DNA of 64,000 bases, taken from Candidatus Omnitrophota bacterium. Its GTDB lineage: Bacteria > Omnitrophota > Gorgyraeia > Zapsychrales > JANLHA01. Location: contig JAKQKX010000063.1 in assembly GCA_029560465.1 (NCBI GenBank), positions 67,796-131,795 on the forward strand. The letters run 5' to 3'. A program made the position numbers and the translations under genes. A model generated the notes under the pieces. It searched no databases and had not been told where the DNA came from. It saw nothing but the letters and a program-made list of their open reading frames with translations. Positions 1,100 through 31,382 of the stretch are shown in pieces (the stretch's first letter is position 1; every line of letters starts with the position of its first letter).

Positions 1100-3517
1100 A
1101 TGAAGTACGGTTCTTTTTCAAAATCGGGGTTGGAATACGTGATTTCCACGCCGCTGACCCCCCGGCCCTGGATTAATTATCTTACGAATGAAAACTACTG
1201 CAGCATCATTTCCCATTGCGCGGGGGGATACAGTTTTTATAAAGACTGCCGCACAAACCGGATAACCCGTTGGGCGCCGGAAAACTGGCATTTTGACCGG
1301 CCTGGGAAATATATATTTATGAGGGATGGCGCAAAGGCGTGGTCCTTAACTTATCAGCCCCTGCGGGTTAAGCCCCAAAAATACGAATGCCGCCACGGAT
1401 TGGGTTATACAACAATTTCCGCGGTCAATAACGGCGTTCATTCGGAAGTGACCTATTTTGTCCCGGAACACGATTCCTGCGAGGTTTGGTTGGTCAAGAT
1501 TTCCAATCAGACCAAAAAGGAGAAGAAACTGGAAATTTATCCCTATGTAGAATTCCTGATCGGGGATTATCATGAGGAGATCCGGTACCGGAATATTATG
1601 AACCTGTACACGCGGGTCTGGTTTGATAAAGGACAGAAGGCTGTCTTTGCCCAAAAAACCGCGCAGTGGCAGGGGATGAATATCCAGCCGTTTGATTCGC
1701 TGATTTATTTTGCCTCGTCCCTGGCCGTGAAAGGATGCTGCACGCAAAAGGACGCTTTTCTCGGGCGGTATAATTCCGAGGAGAAGCCGGAAGCGGTTTT
1801 AGAAGGGCGTTTTAAGAATTTTCCTCTTTGTTCAGGGGAAGACGGCATTGGGTCTTTTAAGCATAGCGTGACTCTGAAGCCCGGGGAGACGAAAGAATTT
1901 TCAGTTATTTTGGGGCAGACGCCCGATGTCCCGGGTGTAGGGAAGCTGATTGCCAAGTACCGCGACCTGAAGCAGGCCAGAGCGGAATTTGAGAAGACCC
2001 GAGAGCTGTGGCGCAGGCGCGTCACGGAGAATATTGTTTTGGAGACCCCGGACAAGGATTTTAATACTTTATTTAATGTGTGGGTCAAGTATCAGTTATA
2101 TATTTGTAACCTGTGGTCGCGGTCTCCGAGTTTTTATCATGAAGGGTCCGGCGGCCGGGGGTACCGGGATTCGGCCCAGGATTCCGAAGCCGTTGTGTCC
2201 ATTAACGCGTCTTTAACCCGTCAAAAGATTTTGAAACTGGCCTCCTTGATCCGTCGTGATGGCACGTCTGCCCCAGGATGGTCGGAAACAGCGGGGCCGC
2301 ACAAATTCCTCCCGAATAAAGATCATCCCGTTTGGCTGACGACGACTGTCACGGCCTATATTAAGGAAACGGGCGACAAGGATATCTTGTGTGAATATGT
2401 CCCGTATTTGAAGGATAAATGGATCAACGGATGGGAGGTTGATCCGAATTATCACGGCGGCGCGCAGACGGACGGGGAAGGGACATTGCTGGAGCATTTG
2501 GAAAAGAACTTAAGTTTTTGTTTTAATGATGTCGGAGAGAAGGGCTTTCCACGGATCGGGCACGCCGACTGGAATGACGCGATTGACGCGGCGGGCATCA
2601 AGCACAGGGGGGAAAGCGTCTGGCTGGCGCAGGCCTTAGTCCGTTCTTTGAAAATGCTGGCCGAGCTCTGTCAGCTCGTGAATGAGGAACAGAAAAAATC
2701 CGAATACCTGCAGATGGCCAAAACCATGACGGAACGCATTAATAACGCCGGCTGGGACGGGGAATGGTATTCCCGCGGGTTTGATGACCAGGGGCAGGTT
2801 TACGGCAGCAAACAGGATAAAGAGGGCAAGATATTTTTAAACACGCAGGCCTGGGCGGTTCTTTCCGGAGTGGCCGAAGGCGAACGGTTGAAAAAGATTT
2901 TACAGTCCACGGATAAGCATTTGAACGGCCCGCACGGATTGGCGCTGTTCGCCCCGGCGTTTTCAGGCTGGGTTAAAAGGCTGGGCCGGATCAGCATGTT
3001 TTCAGAAGGAACGAAAGAAAATGCGGCGGTGTTCTGCCACGCGGCCACGTTCATGGCGGTGGGTTACGCCATGGCCGGGTACGGCGCGAAAGCTTACGAA
3101 GCGGTCTGCAAAATTATGCCTAATAAACAGAAAAATATGGACCTTTATAAAACTGAACCCTATGTGTTCGCGGAATATTTGGTCGGGCCGGATAATCCTT
3201 ACCGGTATGGGGAAGGTGCTTTTACCTGGATCACGGGAACATCGGGTTGGAATTTTATGCTGGCGACAGAGTGGATCTGCGGGGTCCGCCGGGATTTCCA
3301 GGGGCTCAAAATCGATCCATGCCTGCCTCCGCAGTGGAAGAAATGTTGTGTGCGCCGGCCTTTTAGGGGGGATATTTACGAGATTGAAATCCTCAACCCG
3401 AAAGGGAAAGAAAAGGGCGAGAAGACGATAACGGTAGACGGACAACGGATAGATGGGGACGTTATAGTTCCTTTTAAAGACGGCCAGGTCCACCGCGTTA
3501 AGGTGGTTCTGGGATAA
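1100..3517 (+). CDS. GH94 glycoside phosphorylase (cellobiose/cellodextrin/laminaribiose/chitobiose phosphorylase family)
   Basis: The 805-aa product has the N-terminus EYVISTPLTPRPWINYLTNENYCSIISHCAGGYSFYKDCRTNRITRW, which is collinear with the cellobiose phosphorylase N-terminal domain. The GHADWNDA motif matches the GH94 catalytic region (GRADWND), and the length is typical for GH94. Confidence 0.85.
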   Translation: MKYGSFSKSGLEYVISTPLTPRPWINYLTNENYCSIISHCAGGYSFYKDCRTNRITRWAPENWHFDRPGKYIFMRDGAKAWSLTYQPLRVKPQKYECRHGLGYTTISAVNNGVHSEVTYFVPEHDSCEVWLVKISNQTKKEKKLEIYPYVEFLIGDYHEEIRYRNIMNLYTRVWFDKGQKAVFAQKTAQWQGMNIQPFDSLIYFASSLAVKGCCTQKDAFLGRYNSEEKPEAVLEGRFKNFPLCSGEDGIGSFKHSVTLKPGETKEFSVILGQTPDVPGVGKLIAKYRDLKQARAEFEKTRELWRRRVTENIVLETPDKDFNTLFNVWVKYQLYICNLWSRSPSFYHEGSGGRGYRDSAQDSEAVVSINASLTRQKILKLASLIRRDGTSAPGWSETAGPHKFLPNKDHPVWLTTTVTAYIKETGDKDILCEYVPYLKDKWINGWEVDPNYHGGAQTDGEGTLLEHLEKNLSFCFNDVGEKGFPRIGHADWNDAIDAAGIKHRGESVWLAQALVRSLKMLAELCQLVNEEQKKSEYLQMAKTMTERINNAGWDGEWYSRGFDDQGQVYGSKQDKEGKIFLNTQAWAVLSGVAEGERLKKILQSTDKHLNGPHGLALFAPAFSGWVKRLGRISMFSEGTKENAAVFCHAATFMAVGYAMAGYGAKAYEAVCKIMPNKQKNMDLYKTEPYVFAEYLVGPDNPYRYGEGAFTWITGTSGWNFMLATEWICGVRRDFQGLKIDPCLPPQWKKCCVRRPFRGDIYEIEILNPKGKEKGEKTITVDGQRIDGDVIVPFKDGQVHRVKVVLG

Positions 3518-3585: not shown

Positions 3586-3720
3586 ACGCCGTTATCTATT
3601 CTTATATTAAAGACATAATGTTTAATTTAATCATCCCAATGATTTAAAGCTCATCCCCGAAGTCGTCGTTTTCAATATGAATTTGTTCTACTCATTGGGG
3701 CCTCATTTAAAGGAGCGGGT

Positions 3721-5031
3721 ATGAAAGGGAAATTGCTGTTGGTGATCGGGTTTTGTGCCTTGGCGACCATTATCTGGAGTTGTCAAAGTTGCGGGCCGGC
3801 TGTGCCTCCCAATAAAAATATGATTACGGTATGGCATTGGATGACCGATCGGCATGACGCTTTCAATGAATTGGCCAAGCGCTATCAGGCCGAAACGGGC
3901 GTGGAAGTGGTTTTTGAATTATACGCCCCGTCTGACGTTTATTCCCAAAAAATTATAGCCGCTGCCCAGGCGCATATCTTGCCGGATATTTTTGGCATCC
4001 TGGATAAAAAGGCCGTGTTCGCAACGTTTATTGAAAGCGGATTCATCGCCAATTTGACGGAGGAATTTCAGAAAGATGAGGCGGCATGGGAAAAAAGCCT
4101 TTTCCCAAAAGCCCTTTCCGCCAACCGTTTTGAAGAAGGCAATGTTTATAATATTAAACCGGGTATTTACGGGGTTCCGATTGATGTGACCAATATCCAG
4201 ATGCTTTATAACAAGAAGCTGCTGGAGAAAGCCGGGGTCGTGCGTGCTCCCCAGACGTTTGACGAGTTCCTGGCCGCGACCGAAGCCCTGAATCGGGTCG
4301 GCGTTTCCGGGCTGGTTTCCGGTTGGGGCGAGCTTTGGATGGCGGATTGCTTCGCGTCTAATTACGCGTTTAATATTATGGGAGAAGACAAGGTCATGAA
4401 CACGTTCCGCGGGAAAGTGCCGTACACTGACCCGGAATGGATTGAAGTGTTCCGGATTTTTGATATTTTACGGCAAAAAGGCGCTTTGGTGGAAGGGATT
4501 GTGACTAAAGCCAATAAGTACGCGGAACAGGACTTTGCCTTGGGCCGGGCCGCTTTCGCGTTTAACGGGTCCTGGTGCGTGAATGTGTACCATGAGATGA
4601 ACCCGGATTTGGAGTATGGGATTATCCTTCCTCCTAAATATAACACGAGTCTTCCCATGCGGATTTGGGGAGGCGCAGGATCATCGTTTGTTGTCAATAG
4701 CGCTTCTGAAAAACAGGATAAAGCCGTCGCTTTCCTGAAATGGCTTTCCGCAAAAGAACAACAGGCGTATTTGTCTCAGGAAACTTTGAACCTGCCGGCT
4801 AACCGGTATGCGCTGACCGATATCCCGGCTGTGCTTTCGGAATTCGCCCGGGCCATGGACGCGACCACCCATCCGACGATTTGGCCGTTGAATGAGGAAC
4901 CCTTGGTGATCGAGGCGTTTGACAAGGGGATTCAATCGATTATCATAGGAGAGAAAACTCCCGAACAAGTTGCCCAGGACGTGCAGAACGTGAAAGAGCG
5001 TGAGATGGCGAAAAAACAAAAACGGAAATAA
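3721..5031 (+). CDS. carbohydrate ABC transporter substrate-binding lipoprotein (family 1 SBP)
   Basis: A lipoprotein signal (LLLVIGFCALATIIWSCQSC) is present. The 436-aa size and sequence pattern fit sugar-binding SBPs. Two permease genes lie immediately downstream. Confidence 0.75.
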   Translation: MKGKLLLVIGFCALATIIWSCQSCGPAVPPNKNMITVWHWMTDRHDAFNELAKRYQAETGVEVVFELYAPSDVYSQKIIAAAQAHILPDIFGILDKKAVFATFIESGFIANLTEEFQKDEAAWEKSLFPKALSANRFEEGNVYNIKPGIYGVPIDVTNIQMLYNKKLLEKAGVVRAPQTFDEFLAATEALNRVGVSGLVSGWGELWMADCFASNYAFNIMGEDKVMNTFRGKVPYTDPEWIEVFRIFDILRQKGALVEGIVTKANKYAEQDFALGRAAFAFNGSWCVNVYHEMNPDLEYGIILPPKYNTSLPMRIWGGAGSSFVVNSASEKQDKAVAFLKWLSAKEQQAYLSQETLNLPANRYALTDIPAVLSEFARAMDATTHPTIWPLNEEPLVIEAFDKGIQSIIIGEKTPEQVAQDVQNVKEREMAKKQKRK

Positions 5032-5053
5032 CTTTTAAACGAAATTAATCATA

Positions 5054-5983
5054 ATGTCTTTGGCTCTCAAAAGCAAATTTTCACTTCCAAACCTTCGAGA
5101 TCACCTGGAGAGTTTCGCGTTTGTCCTGCCCGCCGTCCTTATTTTTTGTATATTTTATATCGTCCCATTTTACGAAATATTTAAACTGTCCCTGCAGGAA
5201 TGGGATGGCATCAGTTTATCCAGAAGTTATATTGGATTTGAGAATTTTAAAGAATTGTTGGTTGACCAGGGCTGGTGGAGGTCGATGTGGAATGCCGCCT
5301 ATATTACCCTGGTGGCCCTGACCTTTCAGAATGCGCTGGCCTTTGCTCTGGCCCTGGCCTGTGACCAGGAAATTTTTATGAAAGGGGTGTACCGGGTTAT
5401 TTTCTTTATCCCTCCGGTGCTTTCCGAAGTCGTGGTCGGGCTTATCTGGTCCTGGATTCTTTATTCCGGCATGCAGGACGGCCAGCATATCGGGTTGTTG
5501 AATACTGCTTTGGAAAAAATCGGTTTTTCGAACCTGATCACCAATTGGCTGTCCAATCCCAAGACGGTGTTGACCTGCATCGCCGTGGTCCATTCCTGGA
5601 AAGGGTTTGGGTGGGGCTTCATCATGTTTTTAGCCGGGTTGCAGACGATTGACCGCCAGCTATATGAGGCGGCGCGGGTGGATGGCGCCGGGTCGCTCAG
5701 TGTTTTTAAAAATGTGACGGTTCCCATGATGCTGCCGGTGATCGTGGTTGTGATGATTTTAACGATCCTGGGGGCGATGCAGGCTTTTGTCCTTATCCTG
5801 ACGTTGGCGGGCAGTTCGGGGCTGGGGGATTATACCGCCGTCCCGGTGACCAAGATCTTGGCGGCCATGACCGGGCAGAACCGCTACGGTTATGCCTGCG
5901 CCATGGGGGTTAATTTCGGGATGATTTTAATAGCCGTGTCTTTTGTCCTCAAGAAAATGTCCGAACAGATGAAACAGGCTTAA
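5054..5983 (+). CDS. sugar ABC transporter permease (MalF/UgpA-like)
   Basis: Six predicted TM helices with an EAA-type loop (LYEAARVDGAGSLSVFKNVTVP). Confidence 0.8.
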   Translation: MSLALKSKFSLPNLRDHLESFAFVLPAVLIFCIFYIVPFYEIFKLSLQEWDGISLSRSYIGFENFKELLVDQGWWRSMWNAAYITLVALTFQNALAFALALACDQEIFMKGVYRVIFFIPPVLSEVVVGLIWSWILYSGMQDGQHIGLLNTALEKIGFSNLITNWLSNPKTVLTCIAVVHSWKGFGWGFIMFLAGLQTIDRQLYEAARVDGAGSLSVFKNVTVPMMLPVIVVVMILTILGAMQAFVLILTLAGSSGLGDYTAVPVTKILAAMTGQNRYGYACAMGVNFGMILIAVSFVLKKMSEQMKQA

Positions 5984-5997
5984 AAAGAGGAATACAT

Positions 5998-6870
5998 ATG
6001 ATCAGCAAATACAGGGTGATCCGGGCTGTTAAGGCGACATTGATCCATATTTTTCTTTTGACCGTGACCATAACGTGCTTGTTCCCGTTGTTTTGGATGG
6101 CCCGTTCGGCGCTGATGAGCAACAAAACGATTTTTACGGATAAATCCCTGATTCCGGCGGAGATTCATTTTGATAATTTCGTGAAGGCTTGGACGCAAGG
6201 ACAGTTCGGCATGTATTCGCTCAATAGCCTCATTTACACCTTTTCCGTTGTGATTGGGATCGTGGTGATTTCGTCTCTGGCGGCTTATGCTTTTTCCCGG
6301 CTGGAGTTCCCGGGCAAGAATTTCTTCTTTTACATGTTTGTCATGGCCATGATGATCCCGCTCCCCGGGAGTTTTGTCCCGTTAACGGTGTTGATGACGA
6401 AGTTGGGGTTCATCAATTCGTCGTACCCGTTTGTCCGGCAGCTGGGGTATGTGCTGTGTATGATCAACGTGGGCTTATCGCTCAGTATTCTGCTTTTAAA
6501 AACTTTTTTTGACAAGATGCCTCCGGACCTGGAAGACGCCGCCCGTATTGACGGTTGCTCGAAGCTGGGGATATGGAGGCATGTGGCTTTACCCTTGGCC
6601 CGGCCGGCCATTGCCGTTATCGTGATTTTTAACGCATTGAATGTTTGGAATGAGTATATCCTGGCGATGTTGTTGTTAAACGACATCCCGAATCATCCTA
6701 CCATCATGCCGATCCAAAGGGGCCTCATGGTTTTTCAGGGAACATACCTCGCGGACTATCCTCTTTTGATGGCTGGGTTGACCATCGCTGCCGTTCCAAT
6801 TATTTTGGTGTATCTTCTGATGCAAAAGCACATTATTAAAGGTTTGTCATCCGGCGCTGTCGTTGGATAA
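5998..6870 (+). CDS. sugar ABC transporter permease (MalG/UgpE-like)
   Basis: The EAA loop (LEDAARIDGCSKLGIWRHVALPLARPA) is typical of MalG-type permeases. Confidence 0.8.
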   Translation: MISKYRVIRAVKATLIHIFLLTVTITCLFPLFWMARSALMSNKTIFTDKSLIPAEIHFDNFVKAWTQGQFGMYSLNSLIYTFSVVIGIVVISSLAAYAFSRLEFPGKNFFFYMFVMAMMIPLPGSFVPLTVLMTKLGFINSSYPFVRQLGYVLCMINVGLSLSILLLKTFFDKMPPDLEDAARIDGCSKLGIWRHVALPLARPAIAVIVIFNALNVWNEYILAMLLLNDIPNHPTIMPIQRGLMVFQGTYLADYPLLMAGLTIAAVPIILVYLLMQKHIIKGLSSGAVVG

Positions 6871-6893
6871 TCAGAACTGGGAGGGTTTTTATT

Positions 6894-9506
6894 GTGAGAA
6901 AAAACAAACAAGGGGAAAAAACTGTATTAGGATTTTTATTCCTGGCCGGATTTCTTTCGCTGGGGTTGGTGACGTCGGGCTGGACGCAGGGTGCGGATGG
7001 CGAAAGCCTTGTTGTTGATAGGGCGGTTGAGGCGAAGCAGGCTACTGAAGCGGAGGGTTCTCTCGCGCCGAGCCCGGAAGAAGAGCTTTTGGCGGAACCC
7101 GAGGGCGTTGCTGTTGCGGAGGATCCCTCAGAGGAAACGGAAGCTCCGGAAGCGGGTGAGGGAAAGACGGAAGAGGAGAGTCCGGCCGAGGGTGCTGCCG
7201 TGGATGAGGTTTCTAAAGAAGAAATGAATATTACTTTGCCGGTGGGAGGGGAGGCTGTCCCTTACACGGACATCGAGCTTGAGGCGGGGGCGACCAAGGA
7301 TGATTTTGTCCGGAAATCCTGGGAACTGTCCAGCCAGAGGAAATTAGAGCAGCTGGATAAGCTGGTGGCGGTGGCGTTGGCACTTTTTGATGGGGAGGCC
7401 CGCAAAGAACAAGCGTCTTTGTCTGGATTCCCAGGGCGGGGTAAGGAAAAGGATTATGCTTATTTAAACACGGTGGCGACCATCCTGTTTGTGCAGGCGG
7501 AAGCGATGATGAATTATGGCCGTACGGAAGAGTCGATCGCGACATTCCAGAAAATTATTGATGAATATCCCTGGGCGCAAGCTTGGGATCCTTCTCGGGG
7601 GTCATACTGGTCTGTGGCGGAAAAGAGCCAGGCGAGCATTGATGTCATGACCGGGAAAGTCGAAGAAGAGCCGGACGAGCCGCCGACACGGTTGCGGACG
7701 CTGCCTTCCCTGGCCTTTCCCGGAACGGTCCAAGTGGTCGATTATCATAAATACGGGGAGTTTCTCGATGTGGGAACAGACCGGTATCATTATAAGATTA
7801 ATGACCTTAAAGGGTTGAAAGAGGCTGTGGGGGAAGGGGTTTATCCCAATACCGCGGATGTGTTTAAGGATCCGAAATATAAGCAGGCAAAAAAAGAAGG
7901 CCGCCTTGAAGGCAGCCACTGGGATTTTGTGCACAGCGATGACCTGGAAGCCGCTTTTTATAAATGGGCGACGGCCCCGGAACCCGGCGGCGTCAAGCTT
8001 TTTTACCTGGGTATGATTTTTGAAAAAGCGCAAATGTATTATGAGGCCATTAAAACTTACCAGGCCATTATCGTTCATTTTCCAAAGACGGTCGGGTGGA
8101 CGTATTGGCAGACGCCTTGGTATCCGGCTCAAGCCGCGGTTTCCAAGATTATTTATTTGGTGCGTTCCCACCCGGAATTAAATTTAAAAGTGAAATGGAT
8201 GAAAATAGAAGTTAAGAACGGTTTTGATAATGATGTCAGCAACGATGTTGTGGTTACGTATCCTGGTGTCATTCAGGAAAGAGGGTGGATGGATAAAGTT
8301 AAGGAAGGGCTGAACCTGGATAAAAAGAAGGTGCCTTTACGCAATGTCACGCGGCGTTTGGGGGAAGGCAAGGTTTCTCTGGTGCAGTATGATAACGGCC
8401 ACTGGCAGCTCCTGGTGGAAGGCAAGCCGTATGTTATTAAAGGAGTCACGTATGCTCCGACCAAAATCGGTCAGAGCCCGGATAAGGGGACCTTGGTGTC
8501 TTGGATGTATGAAGATACCAACAAGAACGGCAAGGCGGATGGACCGTTTGATGCCTGGGTGGACGCCAACGGTAATAATCAGCAGGACCCGGATGAATTG
8601 GTCGTCGGGGACTTTCAGTTGATCCAGGAGATGGGCGGCAATACCCTCCGGGAATACCACCAGCCGTTTAAACCGAACAAGGACGTTCTGAGGAAGCTTT
8701 ATGAGGAATATGGGATCCGGGTGATCCTGGGGGATTTCCTTGGGAAATACACTCTGGGGTCTGGGGCGTCCTGGTTTGAAGGGACCGATTATGAAAATCC
8801 GGAACATCAGAAGAATATGATGGAATCCGTCCGTCAAATGGTTATGGAACATAAGGATGAGCCTTATCTTTTGTTTTGGCTTTTAGGGAACGAGAACAAT
8901 TACGGAGTCGCCTCTAACGCAGATAAGAAGCCGGAGGCGTATTATAAATTCGCCAATGAGGTGGCTAAAATGATCAAAAGCATTGACCCTAACCATCCGG
9001 TGGCGTTATGTAACGGCGACACCCTGTATCTGGATATTTTCGCGAAGAACGCTCCGGATATTGATATGTTTGCGGCCAATGTTTATCGCGGTGATTATGG
9101 TTTCGGCGCTTTCTGGCAGCAGATTCAGGAGTCGACCGGGAAAGCGGCTTTTATTACCGAGTATGGCTGCCCGGCCTACGCCAAGCATCTCACGAAAGCG
9201 GAGGGGGAAGAAGCGCAGATGAACTATCACCGCGGCAACTGGCATGATATTGAAGCGAATATGGCGGGCCACCCGGAGGGCGCGGGGAACGCCATTGGGG
9301 GGGTTGTCTTTGAGTGGACGGATGAATGGTGGAAGAATTATGAGCCGTTTTATCATGACCGCCGGTCTGATGCGATCGGGCCTTTCCCCGGCGGATACTA
9401 TTATGAAGAATGGTTTGGTATTACAAGCCAGGGCAATGGAACGCACAGCCCCTTTATGCGCCAGTTGAGGAAAAGTTATAAATTTTATAAGGAAGCCTGG
9501 AATTAA
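6894..9506 (+). CDS. secreted multidomain clan GH-A enzyme, GH72-like (Gas/Gel/Phr-type glucanosyltransferase/glucanase fold) with an N-terminal acidic linker and two Trp-rich helical modules
   Basis: GTG start with a signal peptide. Residues ~30-110 form a low-complexity E/A/P-rich linker. Two copies of the ...DEYPWAQAWDPSRGSYW / ...HFPKTVGWTYWQTPWYPAQA module follow. The C-terminal TIM-barrel motif series is YVIKGVTYAP, GGNTLREYHQP, LFWLLGNENNYG (acid/base NE), DMFAANVYRGDYGF and FITEYGCPAY (nucleophile E). Confidence 0.7.
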   Translation: MRKNKQGEKTVLGFLFLAGFLSLGLVTSGWTQGADGESLVVDRAVEAKQATEAEGSLAPSPEEELLAEPEGVAVAEDPSEETEAPEAGEGKTEEESPAEGAAVDEVSKEEMNITLPVGGEAVPYTDIELEAGATKDDFVRKSWELSSQRKLEQLDKLVAVALALFDGEARKEQASLSGFPGRGKEKDYAYLNTVATILFVQAEAMMNYGRTEESIATFQKIIDEYPWAQAWDPSRGSYWSVAEKSQASIDVMTGKVEEEPDEPPTRLRTLPSLAFPGTVQVVDYHKYGEFLDVGTDRYHYKINDLKGLKEAVGEGVYPNTADVFKDPKYKQAKKEGRLEGSHWDFVHSDDLEAAFYKWATAPEPGGVKLFYLGMIFEKAQMYYEAIKTYQAIIVHFPKTVGWTYWQTPWYPAQAAVSKIIYLVRSHPELNLKVKWMKIEVKNGFDNDVSNDVVVTYPGVIQERGWMDKVKEGLNLDKKKVPLRNVTRRLGEGKVSLVQYDNGHWQLLVEGKPYVIKGVTYAPTKIGQSPDKGTLVSWMYEDTNKNGKADGPFDAWVDANGNNQQDPDELVVGDFQLIQEMGGNTLREYHQPFKPNKDVLRKLYEEYGIRVILGDFLGKYTLGSGASWFEGTDYENPEHQKNMMESVRQMVMEHKDEPYLLFWLLGNENNYGVASNADKKPEAYYKFANEVAKMIKSIDPNHPVALCNGDTLYLDIFAKNAPDIDMFAANVYRGDYGFGAFWQQIQESTGKAAFITEYGCPAYAKHLTKAEGEEAQMNYHRGNWHDIEANMAGHPEGAGNAIGGVVFEWTDEWWKNYEPFYHDRRSDAIGPFPGGYYYEEWFGITSQGNGTHSPFMRQLRKSYKFYKEAWN

Positions 9507-9534
9507 GGAGATACGGTTGTCCTCAATATAAAAT

Positions 9535-9564
9535 TTGCTAAATAACAGGTAAAAATGCTATAAT
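9535..9564 (+). promoter_or_regulatory. sigma70-like promoter (TTGCTA-18-TATAAT) upstream of the Trp-rich module gene
   Basis: -35 TTGCTA is at 9535..9540 and -10 TATAAT at 9559..9564, in an AT-rich 230-bp gap. Confidence 0.4.
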
Positions 9565-9740
9565 TACTCCATTGTTTTTAGTTTTATAATCTTAATAGGA
9601 GAGGGGGTGTGGAGAACGGATCTAGTTTTTATCACTACTATCTGACCGCAAGGTTAGATTTCCCCGGCAAGAGGCTGGGAACTGATATAAATAATTTATT
9701 TGAAGGAAATTGGGTTTAACAAATTGGAGGTAACTTAGAG

Positions 9741-10601
9741 ATGCACAAAAAGATTTTGTTATGCATGATGGCGGCCATCTTAGGCGTGTCCTTAGCCATT
9801 CCGGTGCCAGCGGCTGCTTATAATTTTGGAGATTACCGTTCCGTGACACTGATCACGAGTGCTTGGCAGGCCTTAGGGGAGAATGATTTGGAAGCCGTAT
9901 TGGCTTATACGAATAAATGTGTTGAATTATATTCTGAGCAGGCCAAAAAAATGCAGGCCAGCCTGACGGCTTATCCAACCGGCACTAATGATGAAATTTT
10001 CTCTTACTGGGCGTTAAACGATATCGCGACCGGTTTGTTTATTCAGGGTGAAGCGTACCGCAAGGCCAAAATGACAGACGAAGCGGTGAAAGCGTATCAG
10101 ACCGTTGTGGATGAGTATACCTATGGCCAGTGCTGGGATCCGAAGGGATGGTTCTGGAAACCGGCGGAAGCCGCGAAAGAGAAAATTGCTATGATCGAAT
10201 CCGGATCAAATCTGGATTTTGGCGACTATACCTCCATGACTTTAACGGTTAAAGCTTGGGAAGCCCTTGGCAACAAAGATCTGGACAGTGTCGTGGCCTA
10301 TACGAATAAGTGCCTGGAGCTTTATGAAGCGAAAGCTAAAGAGATGCAGGAATCCATGACCGAATATGCTTGGGAATCCAAAGACAAGATTTTCTCTTAC
10401 TGGGCGCTCAATGACGTTGGAACCTGCTATTTTATCAGAGGCGAAGCTTATTTGAACGCCGGGAAGAAAGAAGAAGCGAAGAAAAACTTCAAGAAACTGG
10501 TAGACGAATATTATTTCTCGCAGTGCTGGGATCCGAAGGGCTGGTTCTGGAAGCCGGCAGAAGGCGCCCAGCAGAAACTAGAGGCTCTGGAGGAAGAATA
10601 A
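9741..10601 (+). CDS. secreted protein made of two tandem copies of a Trp-rich helical module of unknown function
   Basis: A signal peptide precedes residues 28-147 and 158-277, which are about 55% identical to each other. Both copies end in YGQCWDPKGWFWKPAE / FSQCWDPKGWFWKPAE. Confidence 0.75.
   Translation: MHKKILLCMMAAILGVSLAIPVPAAAYNFGDYRSVTLITSAWQALGENDLEAVLAYTNKCVELYSEQAKKMQASLTAYPTGTNDEIFSYWALNDIATGLFIQGEAYRKAKMTDEAVKAYQTVVDEYTYGQCWDPKGWFWKPAEAAKEKIAMIESGSNLDFGDYTSMTLTVKAWEALGNKDLDSVVAYTNKCLELYEAKAKEMQESMTEYAWESKDKIFSYWALNDVGTCYFIRGEAYLNAGKKEEAKKNFKKLVDEYYFSQCWDPKGWFWKPAEGAQQKLEALEEE
9822..10571 (+). repeat. intragenic tandem duplication (2 x ~390 nt) encoding the Trp-rich module
   Basis: The DNA and protein self-similarity is visible by eye: FGDYRSVTLITSAWQALGENDLEAVLAYTNKC versus FGDYTSMTLTVKAWEALGNKDLDSVVAYTNKC. 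Confidence 0.7.
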
Positions 10602-10690: not shown

Positions 10691-10756
10691 ATCATCCTGC
10701 AGTCAATTTAATATTAGGTTATGGGTGTTGATTTACATGAAAGGGCGAGATGTCTT

Positions 10757-11398
10757 ATGAACAAAATTGTCTTTTTCTGGGGGCTGTGTTTCCTGGTAAT
10801 ATGCGGCTGCAACCGGAGCAGTTCCAGCCTGACATCACAGGGAAATTCGAACCGGAATGTTGAACAGGAAGAAACCAATTTCCAGCCGTTCCTTGTTTAT
10901 AAAGACAAAGGGTCCAGGGGAAATCATTTTGTCCCTTCCGGTTTTATGCCGAACGGGAAATGTATTAATTTTAACGACGCCTGGCAGGAAAATTGTTATG
11001 ACGGCAAAACCTGTATTCGTGTGGAGTATGACGTGGCTTGCTCGAAAGATGATCAGAAATGGGCCGGCATTTATTGGCTGAACCCGGCGAATAACTGGGG
11101 CAGCCGTAAGGGCGGGTTTAACCTCGCGGGCGCCAGGGAGTTGAGCTTTTGGGCCAAGGGCGAAAAAGGCGGCGAACGTATTGAGGAATTCAAGATGGGC
11201 GGGATTACCGGGGATTTTCCGGATTCCGACATGGCGATCATCGGGCCGGTGATCCTGACGAACGAGTGGCGCAAATACACGATCGATTTGAGGGGCCGCG
11301 ATTTGTCTTACGTGAGCGGCGGCTTTTCTTGGTCGACGAATGTCGACGTAAATCCCGACGCCTGCACGTTTTACCTGGATAATATCCAATATCAATAG
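10757..11398 (+). CDS. lipoprotein with a possible carbohydrate-binding-module-like beta-sandwich domain
   Basis: The internal ATG at 10757 gives the lipobox FLVICGC. The body is rich in aromatic/Gly/Asn residues (GIYWLNPANNWGSRKGGFNLAGARELSFWAKGEKGGERI), typical of CBM-like folds. Confidence 0.45.
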   Translation: MNKIVFFWGLCFLVICGCNRSSSSLTSQGNSNRNVEQEETNFQPFLVYKDKGSRGNHFVPSGFMPNGKCINFNDAWQENCYDGKTCIRVEYDVACSKDDQKWAGIYWLNPANNWGSRKGGFNLAGARELSFWAKGEKGGERIEEFKMGGITGDFPDSDMAIIGPVILTNEWRKYTIDLRGRDLSYVSGGFSWSTNVDVNPDACTFYLDNIQYQ

Positions 11399-11423: not shown

Positions 11424-11456
11424 AGGGGGGGCGGGTTACCGTTCCCCCGTTTTTTT
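11424..11456 (+). terminator. rho-independent terminator
   Basis: The GGGGGGGCGG ... CCGTTCCCCC stem contains two G-U pairs and is followed by TTTTTTT. Confidence 0.6.
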
Positions 11457-11659: not shown

Positions 11660-12982
11660 ATGTCGAGAGCTGCAAAGTCTATTTTAGTGTTTTTGCTCTT
11701 ATTGCTTTTTGTCTCCGTCGGAGTACTGACGTATGTCGCTTTTCAGAAGCAAGAGTCCGATAAATCAAAATTATCCCTGGAAAAGCAGATGGATGATTTT
11801 CAGCAGAGGGAGAAAAAATATATCCTTGAGAATAAAGATTTGCAGGAGAAGTTGAAGGATGTTGAAAAGAAGAAAGCCGAACTTGAAGAACGCTTGAGTT
11901 CTTTTGGCGGTGATATGGAGTCCCTCAACAAGCAGATCGCGGATTTAACCAGTGAACGGGAAGTTTTGCAGGAAAAAATCGCGGAGCTGGAAAAGGAACG
12001 GAACACCTTATTGACCAGGGTTAAAGAAAAGCCGGAGCCGCAGATTGTTTATAAATACGTGGACCGGGAAACCGGCGCGCCGGTGGAGTCCCCGGGGGCG
12101 GCCTCTCCCGCGGCGGGGAAGAAGCCGGAAGAACCGGTGATCAGCAAAGAAATCCCGGCGGTGAGGGTTCCGGAGATATCTCCTGACAACGAAACATATT
12201 GGGCTCAGGTCATCCGGGAAAAAACTTCCCTTGAGCTGGAGGTGAACACTTTAAAAAAGAAATTGGATGCCAATATGCTCGAACTGGAAGCCTTAAAAAA
12301 ATCCAATTCCGACTTGGAATTAGAAATCGCCGAGTTAGCGAATACCAAAGATTCCATCGAGAGAGAGATCAAACATGGCAAAGATCTGGCGGATAATTTG
12401 TCTTTGGCTTTAGCACGGGCGGAGAATGATAAGGAATTCTTAAACGGCCGGTTTGCAAAACTCAACGATGAAAATTCATCCTTGAGGGTCCAGATTAAAG
12501 ATTTGACATCAACCAAGATCGCCCTGGAAAAAAGTATTGTCCGCTTGCAGGATGAGAAGAAGGACGTGGAGCGGAAATTGATGGAAACCGAGCATGTCAT
12601 TCAAAACCGCATTGATGAAATCTGGCAGATTAAGGACAGCCTAGAGAAGAATTTTCAGATGTCCGGAGCCTCGTCAAAGGCGGTCGAGTTGCCGCCAATT
12701 GTTGTTTCTGGCGCTGGAGAAACGTCGACAAGGGCCGCCCCGGAGGTTATTTTGACCGTCCCGGGGTTTAACGGCAACATCGTTTCTGTGAATGATGAAA
12801 ATAATTTTGTTATCGTTGATTTAGGGCAGAATGATGGCATCAAGCTTGGGGATAACATGAGCGTTTACCGGGGCGCGGAATATGTCGCGGCCCTGGAAGT
12901 GATCCAGGTGCGCAAAGATATAGCCGCCGCGGACATTAAAAACAAAGTCACCACAATCCGTGTCGGTGACGCCGTACGATAA
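11660..12982 (+). CDS. membrane-anchored long coiled-coil protein with a C-terminal beta-rich (SAF/FlgA-like) domain
   Basis: An N-terminal TM helix is followed by ~300 aa of heptad-repeat K/E/L-rich sequence. The C-terminus reads NIVSVNDENNFVIVDLGQNDGIKLGDNMSVY. Confidence 0.5.
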   Translation: MSRAAKSILVFLLLLLFVSVGVLTYVAFQKQESDKSKLSLEKQMDDFQQREKKYILENKDLQEKLKDVEKKKAELEERLSSFGGDMESLNKQIADLTSEREVLQEKIAELEKERNTLLTRVKEKPEPQIVYKYVDRETGAPVESPGAASPAAGKKPEEPVISKEIPAVRVPEISPDNETYWAQVIREKTSLELEVNTLKKKLDANMLELEALKKSNSDLELEIAELANTKDSIEREIKHGKDLADNLSLALARAENDKEFLNGRFAKLNDENSSLRVQIKDLTSTKIALEKSIVRLQDEKKDVERKLMETEHVIQNRIDEIWQIKDSLEKNFQMSGASSKAVELPPIVVSGAGETSTRAAPEVILTVPGFNGNIVSVNDENNFVIVDLGQNDGIKLGDNMSVYRGAEYVAALEVIQVRKDIAAADIKNKVTTIRVGDAVR

Positions 12983-12993
12983 TTCAGGACAAC

Positions 12994-13998
12994 GTGACCA
13001 GGAAACGTAAAGTCAGCATAGAGGATGTCGCCCGCCGCGCCAAGGTTTCCATTACAACCGTTTCGCGTGTTATCAACAATGTTCCCACCGTCAGCCAGCA
13101 AAATCGTTCTAAAGTTGAAGAAGCGATCACCGCTTTGAAATATAAGCCGGATGTCAGCGCCCAGCGTTTGGCCAGCGGCACCAATAATGCCATCGGCTTG
13201 GTCATGCCCGGCTATCCGGGGATTTTTTATTCTTTTTACGCCATCGAAATTATCCGGGGGGTGGGGCATGCCTGTGAGACCCTGCGCCTGGATTTGGTGT
13301 TTCATATCACCAACGGGTTTAATCCGCTGAATACTAATAGCGTTGGAGGCGTCATTTTTGCCGATATCATTGAGAACCGGAAACAGGTTGAAGAAGCGTT
13401 ATCCGCCGATATACCTTGCATGGTCATTAATAATGTCGTGGATGACCTGGATGTGAATTATATCGGGATCGATAACGTCGCCGGAGGCCGTATTGCCGCC
13501 GATTATCTTGTCAGCCTGGGGCACCAGCGTGTCGCTATGATTACCGGAAAATTACAGACACAAGCCGGGTTTCAGCGCTTTGAAGGTTTTCAGCAGGGGC
13601 TTCAGAAGGAAAACATAGCTTTGAAGGATGAATATGTGGTTGAGGGGGATTATTCCCGCCGCAGCGCCCGGAATGCGACGGAGAAACTTCTCGCGCTTCC
13701 TCAGCCGCCGACCGCTATATTTGCGGCAAGCGATGATATGGCTTTGGAGGTCATTACCGTGATACAGGAAAGAGGGATGAAGGTCCCTGATGATATTTCG
13801 GTGATCGGGTTTGACGATAATCCCGCCAGCCTTTATGGCGCTATTGCTTTGACCACGATCCGGCAGTCTTTGTTCCAGATGGCCGAATACGCCGTGAAAT
13901 ACCTGCAGAACATAATGTCCGGGAAAAAGAAATCCGCTGTCCAGATGGTTTTAACTCCGCAGCTTGTTGTCCGCGATTCCTGCCGTGCCCTGAAGTAG
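12994..13998 (+). CDS. LacI-family transcriptional regulator
   Basis: GTG start. The N-terminal HTH (VSIEDVARRAKVSITTVSRVINN) is followed by a periplasmic-binding-fold sugar sensor domain. Confidence 0.85.
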   Translation: MTRKRKVSIEDVARRAKVSITTVSRVINNVPTVSQQNRSKVEEAITALKYKPDVSAQRLASGTNNAIGLVMPGYPGIFYSFYAIEIIRGVGHACETLRLDLVFHITNGFNPLNTNSVGGVIFADIIENRKQVEEALSADIPCMVINNVVDDLDVNYIGIDNVAGGRIAADYLVSLGHQRVAMITGKLQTQAGFQRFEGFQQGLQKENIALKDEYVVEGDYSRRSARNATEKLLALPQPPTAIFAASDDMALEVITVIQERGMKVPDDISVIGFDDNPASLYGAIALTTIRQSLFQMAEYAVKYLQNIMSGKKKSAVQMVLTPQLVVRDSCRALK

Positions 13999-26883: not shown

Positions 26884-28890
26884 ATGATTATGAATAACGG
26901 AGTCAAACGGGTTTCTGCGGTGGTTATATTAGGGAGTGTCCTGCTCTGGACGGCCTGGGCGTACGCATACCAGCATGTCAGGATGGAAGGATATCAGCTG
27001 GTCACTGATTACGATCAGGACGGGACATACACGCCTTTTTTTGTCAAGGGGGTCGGGTACAACGCTATCCCCACCGGGGCTTTCCCGAGTGAATACGGAA
27101 TATGTTGGTATAAAGGCATTATTAACGGAAAACCCCAATTCGACTGCCCGGGGGTTCAAGAATATGAAGACCCGGTGATGATGGAAAGGGACCTGGCTAT
27201 TATCAAATCCATGAACGCCAACACAATCCGGACCTGGGGCAAGGTGACGCCGCAGTTGATGGATCAGGCCCAGGCTATGGGATTGAAGGTTATCGCCGGC
27301 TATTGGCTGGATCATAATCTGGATTTTATGAAGAGGGACCTCTCCGGCGTGGAGAAGGATTTTCTGCAGTATGTCCGGGCTTTTAAGGATCATCCGGCGC
27401 TCTTGATGTGGGTCGTGGGGTATCAGAATGAAACAGACCTTTGTAATTTCCAGGGAGCTCAAAGCGATTGCAGCCGGGCGGAGCAGGCCAAGGCCTATTA
27501 TGATTTTGTGAATGCTTTGGCCCGCCAGATCAAGACGCTGGAGGGGGATTCTTTTCATCCCGTGATGATGATCTCCGCGGACCTGGGGGATATCGGCCAG
27601 ATTGCGACCGATGAAAGGCTGAAGGACGTTGATATTCACGGATGCAATGTTTACCGGGGGCCGGACTTCAGTAATTTCTTTGAGTTGTACGCCAACCGTT
27701 CGGCCAAGCCGCTTTTGATTTCGGAATTCGGTTCAGACGCGTGGTTTGTTTTGGACGGTAAACGGCCGGAGAAAGGGGTTGAGAGGCAGGATCTCCAGGC
27801 TTCTTTCCTGGCTGAAGAGTGGGATACTTTGCTGAAATATTCGGGTGGGCGCGGCGGGTTTGTTCTGGGCGGGGTTGTCTCCCCTTTTGCCGACAGCTGG
27901 TGGCAGTATAAAGGCGAGTGGTCGCCCACATGCGCGACGCATGACCGTAATTATATCGTCGGTTTTTATTCCGGACCGGACGGGTTTACTAACCCGGAGT
28001 GGTTCGGCCTCGTGGCCTTGAAACGCCCGGAGGAAGGCCAAAAGTACGACTGGGTTAAGCCCAGGCTCGCCTATACCGTCATGCAGCAGAAATTTACGGA
28101 CCGGCCTCCGGAGCGGCCTTGGCAGGGTTTTGGCAAAGGGACGCTGAGGACGGACGTGTCCTGGAATTACACCGCCGGGTATCATTTTACGCCCCTTCAA
28201 CCGGGGCAGGTTACTCAACTGGGCGGCTTGTTTAACGGGACCAAAATGGTGTCCCTGTGGAACAAGACGACGGGGGTGCTGCTGGCGAAGGCGAAGGTGG
28301 CGTCGGCCAACACGTGGTCTTACAGTGATATCTCTCCGGTAGAGGTTATTCCGAGTTACACGTATACCGTCGCGGTGACATTGGACGGGAGCGGGGGCAG
28401 CCACACCTATGATATCCCCGCCCTGCCGCTGACATGCGGGGATATTCGGATCGAAGGTTCGACATTCGCTTACGGAAGTGCCCGGCCGGTTTCGACAGTG
28501 TTGCCGCAGATGTACGGGCAGGCTGATATTAATTTTGTCCCTCAACGGAAAGGGAACAACCGCGCGCCGATTCTCCTTTCTTCACCGGTGATTTCTCCGC
28601 GCTCCATCTCGGAGAATAAGAAGGGGACGCTGACGGTGCAAGCCAAAGATGAAGACGGGGACACTTTGGTTTACCGGTGGCTCCCCAGTGTCGGGAGCAT
28701 TGAGGGCGACGGGCCCCAGGTGACGTATATCCCGCCGGATGTCTCAGAAAAGACGTTGGAAAACGTCGTCAGCCTTATCAGCGACGGCCGGGGGGGGATT
28801 GTATACGGGAATGTCCTTTTTGAAGTTTTTCCGGTATTTGATCAAACGGCCCCGGAGGAGACAACGAGCCATGAAACGACAGGTCTTTAA
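26884..28890 (+). CDS. secreted GH72-like clan GH-A enzyme (paralog 2) with a DUF4082-like and Ig/PKD-like C-terminal extension
   Basis: A signal peptide is followed by FFVKGVGYNAIP, DLAIIKSMNANTIRTWGKV, LMWVVGYQNETD, VDIHGCNVYRGPDF and LISEFGSDAWF. These are collinear with the 30144..31382 and 6894..9506 proteins. Confidence 0.7.
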   Translation: MIMNNGVKRVSAVVILGSVLLWTAWAYAYQHVRMEGYQLVTDYDQDGTYTPFFVKGVGYNAIPTGAFPSEYGICWYKGIINGKPQFDCPGVQEYEDPVMMERDLAIIKSMNANTIRTWGKVTPQLMDQAQAMGLKVIAGYWLDHNLDFMKRDLSGVEKDFLQYVRAFKDHPALLMWVVGYQNETDLCNFQGAQSDCSRAEQAKAYYDFVNALARQIKTLEGDSFHPVMMISADLGDIGQIATDERLKDVDIHGCNVYRGPDFSNFFELYANRSAKPLLISEFGSDAWFVLDGKRPEKGVERQDLQASFLAEEWDTLLKYSGGRGGFVLGGVVSPFADSWWQYKGEWSPTCATHDRNYIVGFYSGPDGFTNPEWFGLVALKRPEEGQKYDWVKPRLAYTVMQQKFTDRPPERPWQGFGKGTLRTDVSWNYTAGYHFTPLQPGQVTQLGGLFNGTKMVSLWNKTTGVLLAKAKVASANTWSYSDISPVEVIPSYTYTVAVTLDGSGGSHTYDIPALPLTCGDIRIEGSTFAYGSARPVSTVLPQMYGQADINFVPQRKGNNRAPILLSSPVISPRSISENKKGTLTVQAKDEDGDTLVYRWLPSVGSIEGDGPQVTYIPPDVSEKTLENVVSLISDGRGGIVYGNVLFEVFPVFDQTAPEETTSHETTGL

Positions 28891-29914
28891 AATGGGTGTT
28901 TTGTGTGCGGCGCTTCTGGCGTGGCCGGACTCGGCCGCCGGAGATACGTTTTACCTGCGGTCCGGGAGAATTATTGAAGGAACGGTTGTCGAAGAAACGG
29001 ACGATGCCTTGAAAATTAAGACCGAACGGAGGATTTTCTCCCTGCAGAAGCGCCTGATCCAGAGGGTGGAAACATCGAGCCCCGTCGTCACCAAAGTCGG
29101 CACACGGAACCCCTATCCTTCCCGCGCGCCCCAACCGGGAAGCCCGGGAAGGCCGTTTACGCCGGTTGACATTGAAATCCTCTCGGAAGGGCATACCCTT
29201 TCGCCCGCCGTTCGGGAAGAGATCGTGTATGTGATCTCCAAGATGTTCGTGGTTTTCGAAGATGTGTTGGGCCTTGATTTTAACCGGGAGCGCATGTTCA
29301 AAGCCCGCGTCTTCGGGGATTTCGCCGCGTATCAATCCTATCAGGCACAGGTATCGACGTCCCGGTCGGACACGGGCTTTTATTCAATACAAAATAAAGA
29401 AATGGTCCTCTGGAAAAATGACAGCGGCCGTAAAATGTTGCGTATCCTTTATCACGAAGCCAGCCGCGCGATTTTGCACAGACAAATCCCACGGTGTCCG
29501 CCTTGGATCGACGAGGGATTAGCGGAGTTTTTTGAGTATGGGGCCATGGAAGAGGATTCTGTGGTCGTGCAGCCGCAGATGCACAAGGATGAACGGGTGA
29601 AAGCATGGCTGCGGGCTGGAACGCTTATGCCTCTGGAACCGTATCTCCGTTTGCCGGACGCGGAATGGCGGCAGCGCAATGAACGGCAGGACGCCCCGAT
29701 GAGCACCATGGCCTGGTCCCTGATAACGTTTTTACTGTCAACGGAAAAAGGCCGGGCCGCATTTTCCGGGGTGGTCCATGAACTCAGGCGGTTTAATCAT
29801 AAGAATTTTCCAAGTTACCGGGCGATCGAGCATTATTATCCGGGGGGGCTTAAGGCAATGGAGGCGGAATGGCGCGCCTGGATTCCGCGGCCGAGAAAAG
29901 AGAGCAGCTTTTGA
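28871..29914 (+). CDS. secreted protein, DUF1570-like putative peptidase-type domain with an N-terminal beta-hairpin motif
   Basis: I chose the ATG at 28871 (MKRQVFKMGVLCAALLAWPDSAAG) because it gives a clean signal peptide. The product has a conserved LYHEASRAILH segment. Its N-terminal motif TFYLRSGRIIEGTVVEETDDALKIKT is shared with the 343..903 protein. Confidence 0.45.
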   Translation: MKRQVFKMGVLCAALLAWPDSAAGDTFYLRSGRIIEGTVVEETDDALKIKTERRIFSLQKRLIQRVETSSPVVTKVGTRNPYPSRAPQPGSPGRPFTPVDIEILSEGHTLSPAVREEIVYVISKMFVVFEDVLGLDFNRERMFKARVFGDFAAYQSYQAQVSTSRSDTGFYSIQNKEMVLWKNDSGRKMLRILYHEASRAILHRQIPRCPPWIDEGLAEFFEYGAMEEDSVVVQPQMHKDERVKAWLRAGTLMPLEPYLRLPDAEWRQRNERQDAPMSTMAWSLITFLLSTEKGRAAFSGVVHELRRFNHKNFPSYRAIEHYYPGGLKAMEAEWRAWIPRPRKESSF

Positions 29915-30143
29915 TCAGCGTTTGGCTGTTGTTCTGAAGAAAAAAACGGCGTGCGGGCGGCCACCCACACACCGTAAGTAACCCGAGGATAGCATAGGAG
30001 CCAGTCCTCAGTCCTGTGTTGCGTTCTTAGTATAGCAAGGCACTGTCTCCTTGGCAATCGTCATCTTAAAGGAGGTGGTGCTTTTTTTATGGCCGGGAGG
30101 GAATTTTGACGGGAACCAGGTTAAAACTTGAAAGGAGGATAAT

Positions 30144-31382
30144 ATGAACAGGACAGGGATCAAATACGGGCTGGCGACGGGGGTCATCATGGCGGTTATC
30201 CTGTTAGGGATTTCACCTTGTTGGGCGTATCCTTATGTCAGGGTGGACGGGCGGCGATTATTGACGGATTTTGACCGGGACGGGCGGTATGAGCCGTTTC
30301 TTGTGAAAGGGATGGGGTATTCCAACACCCCGATCGGGTCGTTCCCGTCCCAGTACGGGTTATGCTGGTACCGCGGCACGTCCGACGGGCAGCCGCAGTT
30401 TGAATGCCCAGGGGATCAGGAGTATGACAATCCGCTTCTTCTGGACCAGGACCTTCCGTTGATTAAAGACATGAATGCCAACACGATTCGGACTTGGGGG
30501 AAGGTCACGCCGGAACTTCTTAAGAAAGCTAATGAGCTGGGGCTGAAGGTCATTGCCGGTTACTGGATTCCTCATCAGCTGGATTATGTGAACGGGGACC
30601 TGGCCGCGTTGGAGAAGGACATCCTTGACTATGTCGCGGAATTCAAGGATGACCCGGCGATTTTAATGTGGGGAATTTCCAACGAGAATGAAGTGGCCTT
30701 TTGCACCTTCAAAGATGCGGGCCCCTCTTGCCGGCGGGAGGATCAGGCGGCCGCTTTTTACAAGCTTATGAATACGATTGCCCGTAAAATCAAGGAGCTG
30801 GAAGGGGAGTCGTTTCATCCGGTGATGATGGTTTCCGCTGACCTCGGGGACATCGGGGTCCATGCGGGGGATGAGGCGCTGCCTGACGTGGATGTCCACG
30901 GATGCAATGTTTATCGCGGCGGGGACTTCGGCCCCAAAGCGAACAATTTCTTCCAGCAGTATGAAAAGCGCTCCCGAAAACCGGTTTTAATCACCGAATT
31001 CGGAACGGACGCCTGGTTTGTCCTGGGAGCGGATCACCCGGAGAGAGGGAAAGAACGGCCGGACATGCAGGCTAAGTATATCGCGGAGTCTTGGGACACG
31101 ATTATGGCGTATCACGTGACCCGTGGCGGGCCGAACATCGGCGGCGTGGTGTTTCAGTATGCCGATGGATGGTGGAAATATAAAGGGGATTGGGATCCTT
31201 CTGCGGCCACGCATGATTGCGGATATACGCCGGATGTTCACGCGGGGCCGGACGGGTACATGAATGAAGAATGGTTTGGGGTGATGGCTTTGGAGCCGAA
31301 TCCTGTTCCTGGGCAACTGGACATCCTGCACCCTCGGCCGGCGTATGACGTGATCAAGGAAAAGTTTGCCGGCGAGCTTTAA
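30144..31382 (+). CDS. secreted GH72-like clan GH-A enzyme (paralog 3, catalytic domain only)
   Basis: A 412-aa product with a signal peptide. The motif series is FLVKGMGYSN, CPGDQEYDNPLLLDQDLPLIKDMNANTIRTWGKV, LMWGISNENEV, VDVHGCNVYRGGDF and LITEFGTDAW. It parallels yeast Gas1: [44 protein letters not shown] and FFSEYGCN. Confidence 0.7.
   Translation: MNRTGIKYGLATGVIMAVILLGISPCWAYPYVRVDGRRLLTDFDRDGRYEPFLVKGMGYSNTPIGSFPSQYGLCWYRGTSDGQPQFECPGDQEYDNPLLLDQDLPLIKDMNANTIRTWGKVTPELLKKANELGLKVIAGYWIPHQLDYVNGDLAALEKDILDYVAEFKDDPAILMWGISNENEVAFCTFKDAGPSCRREDQAAAFYKLMNTIARKIKELEGESFHPVMMVSADLGDIGVHAGDEALPDVDVHGCNVYRGGDFGPKANNFFQQYEKRSRKPVLITEFGTDAWFVLGADHPERGKERPDMQAKYIAESWDTIMAYHVTRGGPNIGGVVFQYADGWWKYKGDWDPSAATHDCGYTPDVHAGPDGYMNEEWFGVMALEPNPVPGQLDILHPRPAYDVIKEKFAGEL

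Follow-up and report, generated by a model that had tools for sequence, protein, structure and literature searches.

Omnitrophota are widespread, uncultured and very small bacteria whose mode of feeding is debated. The stretch of DNA analyzed here, referred to as the window, comprises 64,000 nucleotides (nt) of a contig (JAKQKX010000063.1) from a Candidatus Omnitrophota bacterium. It contains a carbohydrate-related locus that encodes a repeated Trp-rich module of about 130 amino acids (aa), and this module is the subject of the present analysis. The genes of the locus follow in the order: a phosphorylase of glycoside hydrolase (GH) family 94, the solute-binding protein of an ATP-binding cassette (ABC) importer, two permeases, an 870-aa enzyme, a two-module protein, a protein termed p225, a 440-aa coiled-coil protein (cc440) and a LacI-family regulator. 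Positions are those of the window, and all of its features lie on the plus strand unless the minus strand is given. The locus is among the most conserved carbohydrate systems of Omnitrophota, and two of its core parts, the tetratricopeptide repeat (TPR)-like module and p225, lack annotation at the level of a family.

The copies of the module were located with a hidden Markov model (HMM), which was built from 206 diverse modules and used to search all six translated reading frames of the window. The two-module protein (9741..10601, 286 aa) is exported. It has a Sec-type signal peptide at about residues 1–26 with cleavage after AAA, and its ATG is preceded, at a distance of about 8 nt, by a GGAGG Shine-Dalgarno sequence. 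After the signal peptide, two canonical units of about 130 aa, mutually 57% identical, follow each other head-to-tail without a linker (module 1 at 9816..10199, E 5.8e-60; module 2 at 10209..10592, E 1.3e-60, also present in the AlphaFold2 model described below). An earlier reading of the bare sequence, the first-pass annotation, had described a tandem pair in a secreted protein, and the signal peptide, the identity of the units and the HMM scores (E about 1e-60) confirm it. In a database search, the 286-aa protein was 100% identical to a “tetratricopeptide repeat protein” of a Candidatus Omnitrophota metagenome-assembled genome (MAG), which is also the public database name for module proteins. 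The third canonical module (31519..31905, E 2e-57; 50% identical to module 1) belongs to a single-module, exported protein encoded at 31447..31911, 64 nt 3' of a 412-aa GH158-like enzyme. The module of this protein had been recognized correctly, but the protein itself is 154 aa long (plus a stop codon) and not 155 aa. The remaining copies are inside the 870-aa enzyme. One is a divergent, clearly homologous full-length module (7299..7649, E 1.5e-26), in which, according to the alignment, both Cys residues are replaced by Ala and the WDP...W residues are retained. The other is a half-module (7995..8153) that matches HMM positions 73–125 only (E 7e-4, 15 bits). It consists of the last TPR hairpin, the aromatic loop and the final helix, and Pfam TPR_6 matches over residues 369–399. 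The window total is 4.5 copies (three canonical, one divergent and one half), so the five copies counted at first do not stand. A generic, strongly TPR-positive protein (31992..33968, minus strand) was not matched by the module HMM in the same search; the HMM signal is therefore specific to the family and not generic for TPRs. This 658-aa polytopic membrane protein has a canonical TPR array at its C-terminus, is encoded convergently to the single-module gene and seems not to belong to the module system.

The structure of the 286-aa protein was predicted with AlphaFold2 from a 75-sequence alignment (mean predicted local distance difference test score 90.7). The helices of module 1 are placed at residues 34–46, 50–73, 90–108 and 112–125, with the last helix at 141–154. 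A two-stranded hairpin, formed by residues 131–132 and 138–139, falls exactly on Q-C-W-D-P-K-G-W-F-W, before the last helix. The module is thus predicted to be a compact five-helix TPR-like domain of about 130 aa with a Trp-rich β-hairpin (QCWDPxGWFWxPA) inserted before its last helix, which agrees with the original description of a TPR-like helical module with an aromatic loop. Its antiparallel helix-turn-helix solenoid is the fold of the TPR superfamily, and four Pfam models match the 286-aa protein above their cut-offs: TPR_6 (45.1 bits, cut-off 26.3), TPR_2 (35.5, 27), TPR_1 (30.4, 27.8) and TPR_8 (29.4, 25.7). These matches span one hairpin of about 28 residues per module (residues 99–126 and 229–255). 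By both sequence and fold criteria, the module is a member of the TPR superfamily. Its earlier designation as unannotated was right in that neither Pfam nor NCBIfam holds a dedicated family model, only generic TPR models; it was wrong in that the four generic models pass their cut-offs and the database name already refers to TPRs. The best NCBIfam matches, YbgF and BamD, are below threshold. When a profile of the module was compared with PDB sequences, only one TPR hairpin (about 25 residues) was matched, and the 286-aa protein as a single query against PDB sequences gave nothing meaningful. Foldseek returned only weak matches for the whole two-module model (E > 1e-3, template modelling score <= 0.37), so the module pair is not a continuous TPR superhelix. 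No description of the module was found in the literature on Omnitrophota, on GHs together with TPRs, and on GH158.

The module represents a distinct and sizeable family without its own model, with a characteristic aromatic hairpin and genomic niche. A word-indexed search with the window protein gave 2,125 matches, and an exhaustive search with the single-module protein gave 976 clusters (50% identity) at E <= 1e-3 and 462 at E <= 1e-10. The proteins listed contain from one to seven modules each, and one gene of an Aureabacteria/Auribacterota-like locus contains about nine; orthologues at the same operon position have either two or three. A signal peptide or lipobox is present in nearly all of the approximately 40 single-module members listed, with a lipobox in some. 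Across the 206 modules, the motifs quoted in the first-pass annotation proved to be real and conserved. The best-kept positions are A15/W16, A42, Q46, W-A-L-N-D-V-x-T and A-Q-C-W-D-P-x-G-W-F-W-x-P-A; W16 is kept in 93%, N67 in 205/206, D68 in 93%, W106 in 78%, D107 in 88%, G110 in 86% and W113 in 93%. Trp and Phe together with Asn, Asp and Gln are the best-kept residues, a composition that is typical of sugar-binding sites. The two Cys columns of the first-pass motifs (Cys34 and Cys105) co-occur only weakly (odds ratio 2.2, p = 0.03), and a third Cys column behaves similarly; a Cys34–Cys105 disulfide within the module is possible. A metagenome scan for single-module paralogues mostly returned the two-module operon, and no close orthologue of the 154-aa protein was found in that scan (best 57% identity).

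The enzymes next to the modules were at first considered GH72-like, and this assignment had to be abandoned. The 870-aa secreted enzyme (6894..9506) consists of a signal peptide, an acidic linker, the 1.5 modules and a GH158-like catalytic domain of clan GH-A (about 8304..9503). The 412-aa secreted enzyme (30144..31382), directly 5' of the single-module gene, is a paralogue of this catalytic domain. In a comparison of the catalytic-domain profile with the PDB, the GH158 chain 9oro_A was matched at E 8e-51 (176 bits) and BuGH158 (6pal_A) at E 6.3e-36, while the next family, GH2, reached E 4.9e-16 at best. Neither window enzyme matches the GH72 model PF03198 at E up to 1, and no GH72 chain is among the 60 PDB profile matches listed; some homologues of the enzyme give faint or weak PF03198 matches only. 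The catalytic pair of clan GH-A is retained in the alignment as GNEN, in which the Glu of NE is the acid/base, and the nucleophile motif (I/V)TE(Y/F)G. Judged by these profiles and motifs, both enzymes of the window are GH158-like, and the Omnitrophota enzymes are divergent. Characterized GH158 enzymes act on β-1,3-glucans (PMC13195107; PMC7157763).

Among the other genes of the locus, the GH94 phosphorylase (1100..3517) is closest to cellobiose phosphorylase (3qde, E 1.1e-147); an identity as laminaribiose phosphorylase was rejected, as the corresponding match was far weaker (E 5.2e-43). It is followed by the ABC sugar importer, with its solute-binding protein and two permeases (3721..6870). 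Downstream of the two-module gene, p225 (10721..11398) is a CBM-like β-sandwich lipoprotein, where CBM stands for carbohydrate-binding module; its likely start at 10757 gives a protein of 213 aa. The 440-aa protein (11660..12982) has an N-terminal membrane anchor and two long coiled-coil segments, which are separated by a Pro-rich linker and followed by a small conserved C-terminal domain (...FNGNIVSVNDENNFVIVDLGQNDGIKLGD...). The LacI-family regulator (12994..13998) completes the locus. Two possible signals, both consensus matches only, surround the two-module gene and p225. A promoter-like site (9535..9564; 10/12 consensus positions, extended -10 TG) lies in the 234-nt gap 5' of the two-module gene, and a terminator-like hairpin (11425..11448; 10-bp stem, 8 GC pairs, T-run) lies 3' of p225. 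Taken together, they suggest that the two genes form a transcription sub-unit of their own.

Conservation of this arrangement was assessed in a scan of species-representative genomes, in which 446 loci encode a relative of the module; genes were counted at the best 80 of these loci, all of which come from Omnitrophota-type MAGs. The 440-aa protein is an operon member in 64/80. For adjacency, only loci with enough flanking sequence were counted, 70 in each case (at least 3 kb upstream for the GH). A GH catalytic domain is found within 1.5 kb upstream of the module gene in 62/70 loci, and p225 within 1.5 kb downstream in 67/70, which makes p225 the tightest-linked neighbour. For the module protein, the enzyme and p225, the searches gave more than 1,000 homologues each. 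The loci are mostly orthologous, so these counts show conservation and not independent association, and distant members were therefore sampled, of which two on short contigs were uninformative. Many of the best records bear the title “uncultured Planctomycetales bacterium” (from binchicken co-assemblies, e.g., L001 and L005–L008) and contain, at 65–97% identity, the same operon that records titled Candidatus Omnitrophota have. These labels look unreliable, because the operon is the same in both sets of records.

Among the distant members, the connection with glycan-active genes recurs in different forms. In P0322, which is 44% identical, a single-module gene overlaps a gene for a 452-aa GH158-like protein (L165–L167), and in P0303 the GH158-like gene is directly next after the module gene (L168). 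P0311 (L169/L170) and P0521 (L174/L175) have triads in which a GH158-like gene and a module gene diverge from a LacI gene between them, the second of these in a region rich in carbohydrate-active enzymes (CAZymes). In P0287 (L164), a GH128-type catalytic core (PF11790) carries a fused pair of modules. In P0245 (L177), the module gene is located between a 906-aa GH94 gene (5041..7761 of that record) and a gene for an orthologous solute-binding protein, 58% identical to that of the window. Further fusions connect the module to a GH72/GH2_C-like barrel, to a glycosyltransferase family 2 (GT2) cellulose-synthase-like domain and to a chitobiase C-terminal domain. The Aureabacteria/Auribacterota-like locus mentioned above (P0241, L172/L173) contains a 3-module gene and the gene with about nine modules, and around them lie two LacI genes and four homologues of p225. 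At this locus (about 3700..9920 and flanks), the gene with about nine modules encodes 1,112 aa in the cluster member P0390, and a gene of about 480–500 aa precedes each p225 homologue.

Several known systems share features with the module. Most CBM families are β-sandwiches, whereas the fold of the module is all-α and TPR-like and its binding of carbohydrate, the property that defines a CBM, is putative. Genetically the module behaves as CBMs do: it is discrete and non-catalytic, occurs in tandem and is fused to or located beside GHs of more than one family, and its conserved residues include many aromatics as well as Asn, Asp and Gln. One feature by which CAZy recognizes a CBM is thus present, a discrete contiguous non-catalytic unit joined to CAZymes or found with them, as the fusions and the adjacency to GH158-like genes in several lineages show. 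The other comparisons concern TPR proteins. Membership in YbgF/CpoB (TIGR02795) was rejected, since the score of 22.5 bits is far below the cut-off (90.1); the model of the 286-aa protein contains no coiled coil, and its neighbours are CAZyme and transport genes and not tol-pal. BamD (TIGR03302) was rejected as well (12.9–18.6 bits against 81.4), and the protein has a Sec-type signal and not a lipobox. For the C-terminal TPR domain of YbgF/CpoB (PDB 2xev, 6g5s) and for BamD, sequence likeness to the module is limited to a hairpin of about 25 residues, and the Trp-rich β-hairpin motif of the module is not seen in them at the sequence level. Module loci are without tol-pal or Bam genes, and head-to-tail arrays and linkage to CAZymes are specific to the module.

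One study reports that the TPR domain of PgaA binds the polymer poly-N-acetylglucosamine (PNAG) and the hydrolase PgaB, whose activity it modulates (PMC9384988). PgaA, PelB, BcsC and AlgK are, as the module may be, periplasmic TPR scaffolds beside glycoside hydrolases, and one module member is fused to the GT2 cellulose-synthase-like domain. However, these proteins are long continuous TPR superhelices on an outer-membrane porin and are encoded in biosynthetic operons, whereas the module locus, with its importer, phosphorylase and LacI regulator, is catabolic. SusD also has a TPR scaffold, but it is a single domain of about 550 aa, in contrast to the repeatable unit of 130 aa. Membership in SusD/RagB was rejected, with no SusD or RagB Pfam match at E up to 1. 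No SusC-type TonB-dependent transporter was found among the neighbouring genes scanned, and the importer of the locus is an ABC system. Beyond the TPR fold, the relation of the locus to SusD-like glycan-binding proteins and to β-sandwich lipoproteins of the SGBP-B (surface glycan-binding protein B) type, as found in the Bacteroides polysaccharide utilization locus (PUL) for β-1,3-glucan with BuGH158, is one of analogy only (PMC7157763).

We tentatively propose, at somewhat less than even confidence, that the module is a non-catalytic, multivalent accessory binding module, most likely but only by a small margin glycan-binding, of an envelope-associated apparatus for the capture and degradation of β-glucan. 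Such an apparatus would include the module proteins, the GH158-like endo-glucanase, p225, the membrane-anchored coiled-coil protein, the ABC oligosaccharide importer, the GH94 phosphorylase and the LacI regulator, and the module would act in it either in the periplasm or at the cell surface. A glucan chain or its oligosaccharides may be bound by the aromatic hairpin together with three invariant polar residues, N67, D68 and Q46. The side chains of a two-stranded hairpin alternate between its faces, and exposure is therefore expected for some of W132, W137, F138 and W139. Tandem copies could add avidity and keep the substrate near the enzyme, in a mode resembling SusD and the TPR domain of PgaA, which work beside glycan-processing enzymes. 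The module resembles CBMs and similar binding modules because it is a discrete unit of variable copy number, and its association with several different glycan-active folds speaks for a common glycan and not for a single partner protein.

There are also points that weigh against this proposal. The substrate is uncertain, since GH158 indicates β-1,3-glucan and yet the GH94 enzyme is closest to cellobiose phosphorylase; this mismatch leaves β-1,4, β-1,3 and mixed-linkage glucans as candidates for the operon. The conserved Trp residues may do no more than cap the domain hydrophobically. A CBM-like protein of canonical appearance, p225, is already encoded in the operon, and the closest structural relatives of the module (CpoB/YbgF and BamD) are protein–protein interaction modules. 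At the Aureabacteria-like locus, about 12 modules are encoded with p225 homologues and LacI genes, and there is no GH within 18 kb. Finally, a class of two-module paralogues (L068, L069, L104, L122 and L141) keeps the motif intact in housekeeping surroundings without CAZymes, where the neighbours are genes for acetyl-CoA synthetase, Sir2, fumarate reductase, a PP-loop ATPase and a nitroreductase. The first-pass annotation had placed the module always beside or fused to the glycoside hydrolases. This holds inside the window; across genomes, co-occurrence with GHs is strong and is found again in distant lineages and as fusions, but the housekeeping class shows that it is not obligatory. The module is genuinely and repeatedly linked to glycan systems, but not strictly so. 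The genomes nzgw300 and nzgw301 each have both a housekeeping paralogue and an operon copy.

Alternatively, the module could be a protein–protein docking scaffold whose tandem array would assemble an envelope complex without touching glycan. We regard this as a serious alternative, only slightly less probable than glycan binding. The docking partner could be p225, the divergent module within the enzyme itself or the membrane-anchored coiled-coil protein, and CpoB/YbgF, BamD and the enzyme-binding face of the PgaA and PelB TPRs would serve as models. The nearest folds are periplasmic TPR domains for protein interaction, the weak best NCBIfam matches are YbgF and BamD, and glycan binding could be supplied separately by p225. 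CpoB consists of a coiled coil and a TPR domain, and here the operon encodes a membrane-anchored coiled-coil protein in addition to the module. The linkage to p225 is also tighter than that to the GH and is still seen at a locus with no GH close by, and the module gene and p225 may share their own transcription unit. Nevertheless, one co-evolving partner poorly explains the links to GH158-like, GH128-type, GT2 and chitobiase-domain folds, a docking domain would be redundant if it were part of the same polypeptide as the enzyme to be docked, and the motif is retained in housekeeping paralogues that have none of these partners in their neighbourhood. It is mainly the fusions to several folds that tilt the balance from docking towards glycan binding. 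A dual role, with binding of both glycan and protein as in PgaA, is possible by analogy.

Two further explanations are given little probability, and about the same for each. The module could anchor secreted enzymes and binding proteins to peptidoglycan or another self polymer of the cell envelope, in the manner of LysM, SPOR or SLH domains. The family is indeed exported, tandemly repeated and in some cases lipid-anchored, its motif is intact in paralogues of non-CAZyme contexts, and giant multi-domain proteins of surface type, with RHS, He_PIG and DUF4082, contain the module as well. However, a generic anchor would not be expected to show the strong, recurrent and specific linkage that the module has to GH158-like enzymes, LacI regulators and sugar importers, and a known wall-binding motif is not present in the module. 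Alternatively, the module proteins could be ordinary TPR proteins, with an aromatic motif of purely structural use as a solenoid cap and a linkage that reflects one operon inherited within one phylum. Pfam recognizes only the TPR repeats, and the best 80 genome loci and most metagenome loci are orthologous Omnitrophota operons, so that the counts are mostly non-independent. Against this, the linkage recurs with other gene orders and orientations in lineages that are 40–47% identical, and also as fusions. The other TPR protein of the window is not matched by the module HMM, and N67, D68, W106, D107 and W113 are kept far above typical TPR surface positions.

A wider form of the glycan-binding proposal can be stated, which we consider unlikely at present. 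The module would found an all-α CBM family with a TPR fold. Together with p225 and the coiled-coil protein, it would form a SusD/SGBP-like capture apparatus that evolved independently of the Bacteroidota PULs and feeds an ABC importer in Omnitrophota and related candidate phyla of the PVC (Planctomycetes–Verrucomicrobia–Chlamydiae) group. If the module binds glucans, a helical fold class would be added to the known CBMs, a PUL-like capture strategy would be recognized outside Bacteroidota, and annotation would gain a marker of β-glucan use in candidate phyla. A docking role would instead define a new enzyme-assembly system of the envelope. The domain is small, soluble and confidently modelled.

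The single-module gene is preceded by a second cluster of GH158-like paralogues (26884..31382). This cluster begins with a 668-aa protein that has a weak GH2_C match and a Big_9 Ig domain and continues with a 391-aa open reading frame (ORF) before the 412-aa enzyme. The 391-aa ORF has a weak DUF1570 match and overlaps the preceding ORF by about 150 nt; its real start is therefore probably later.

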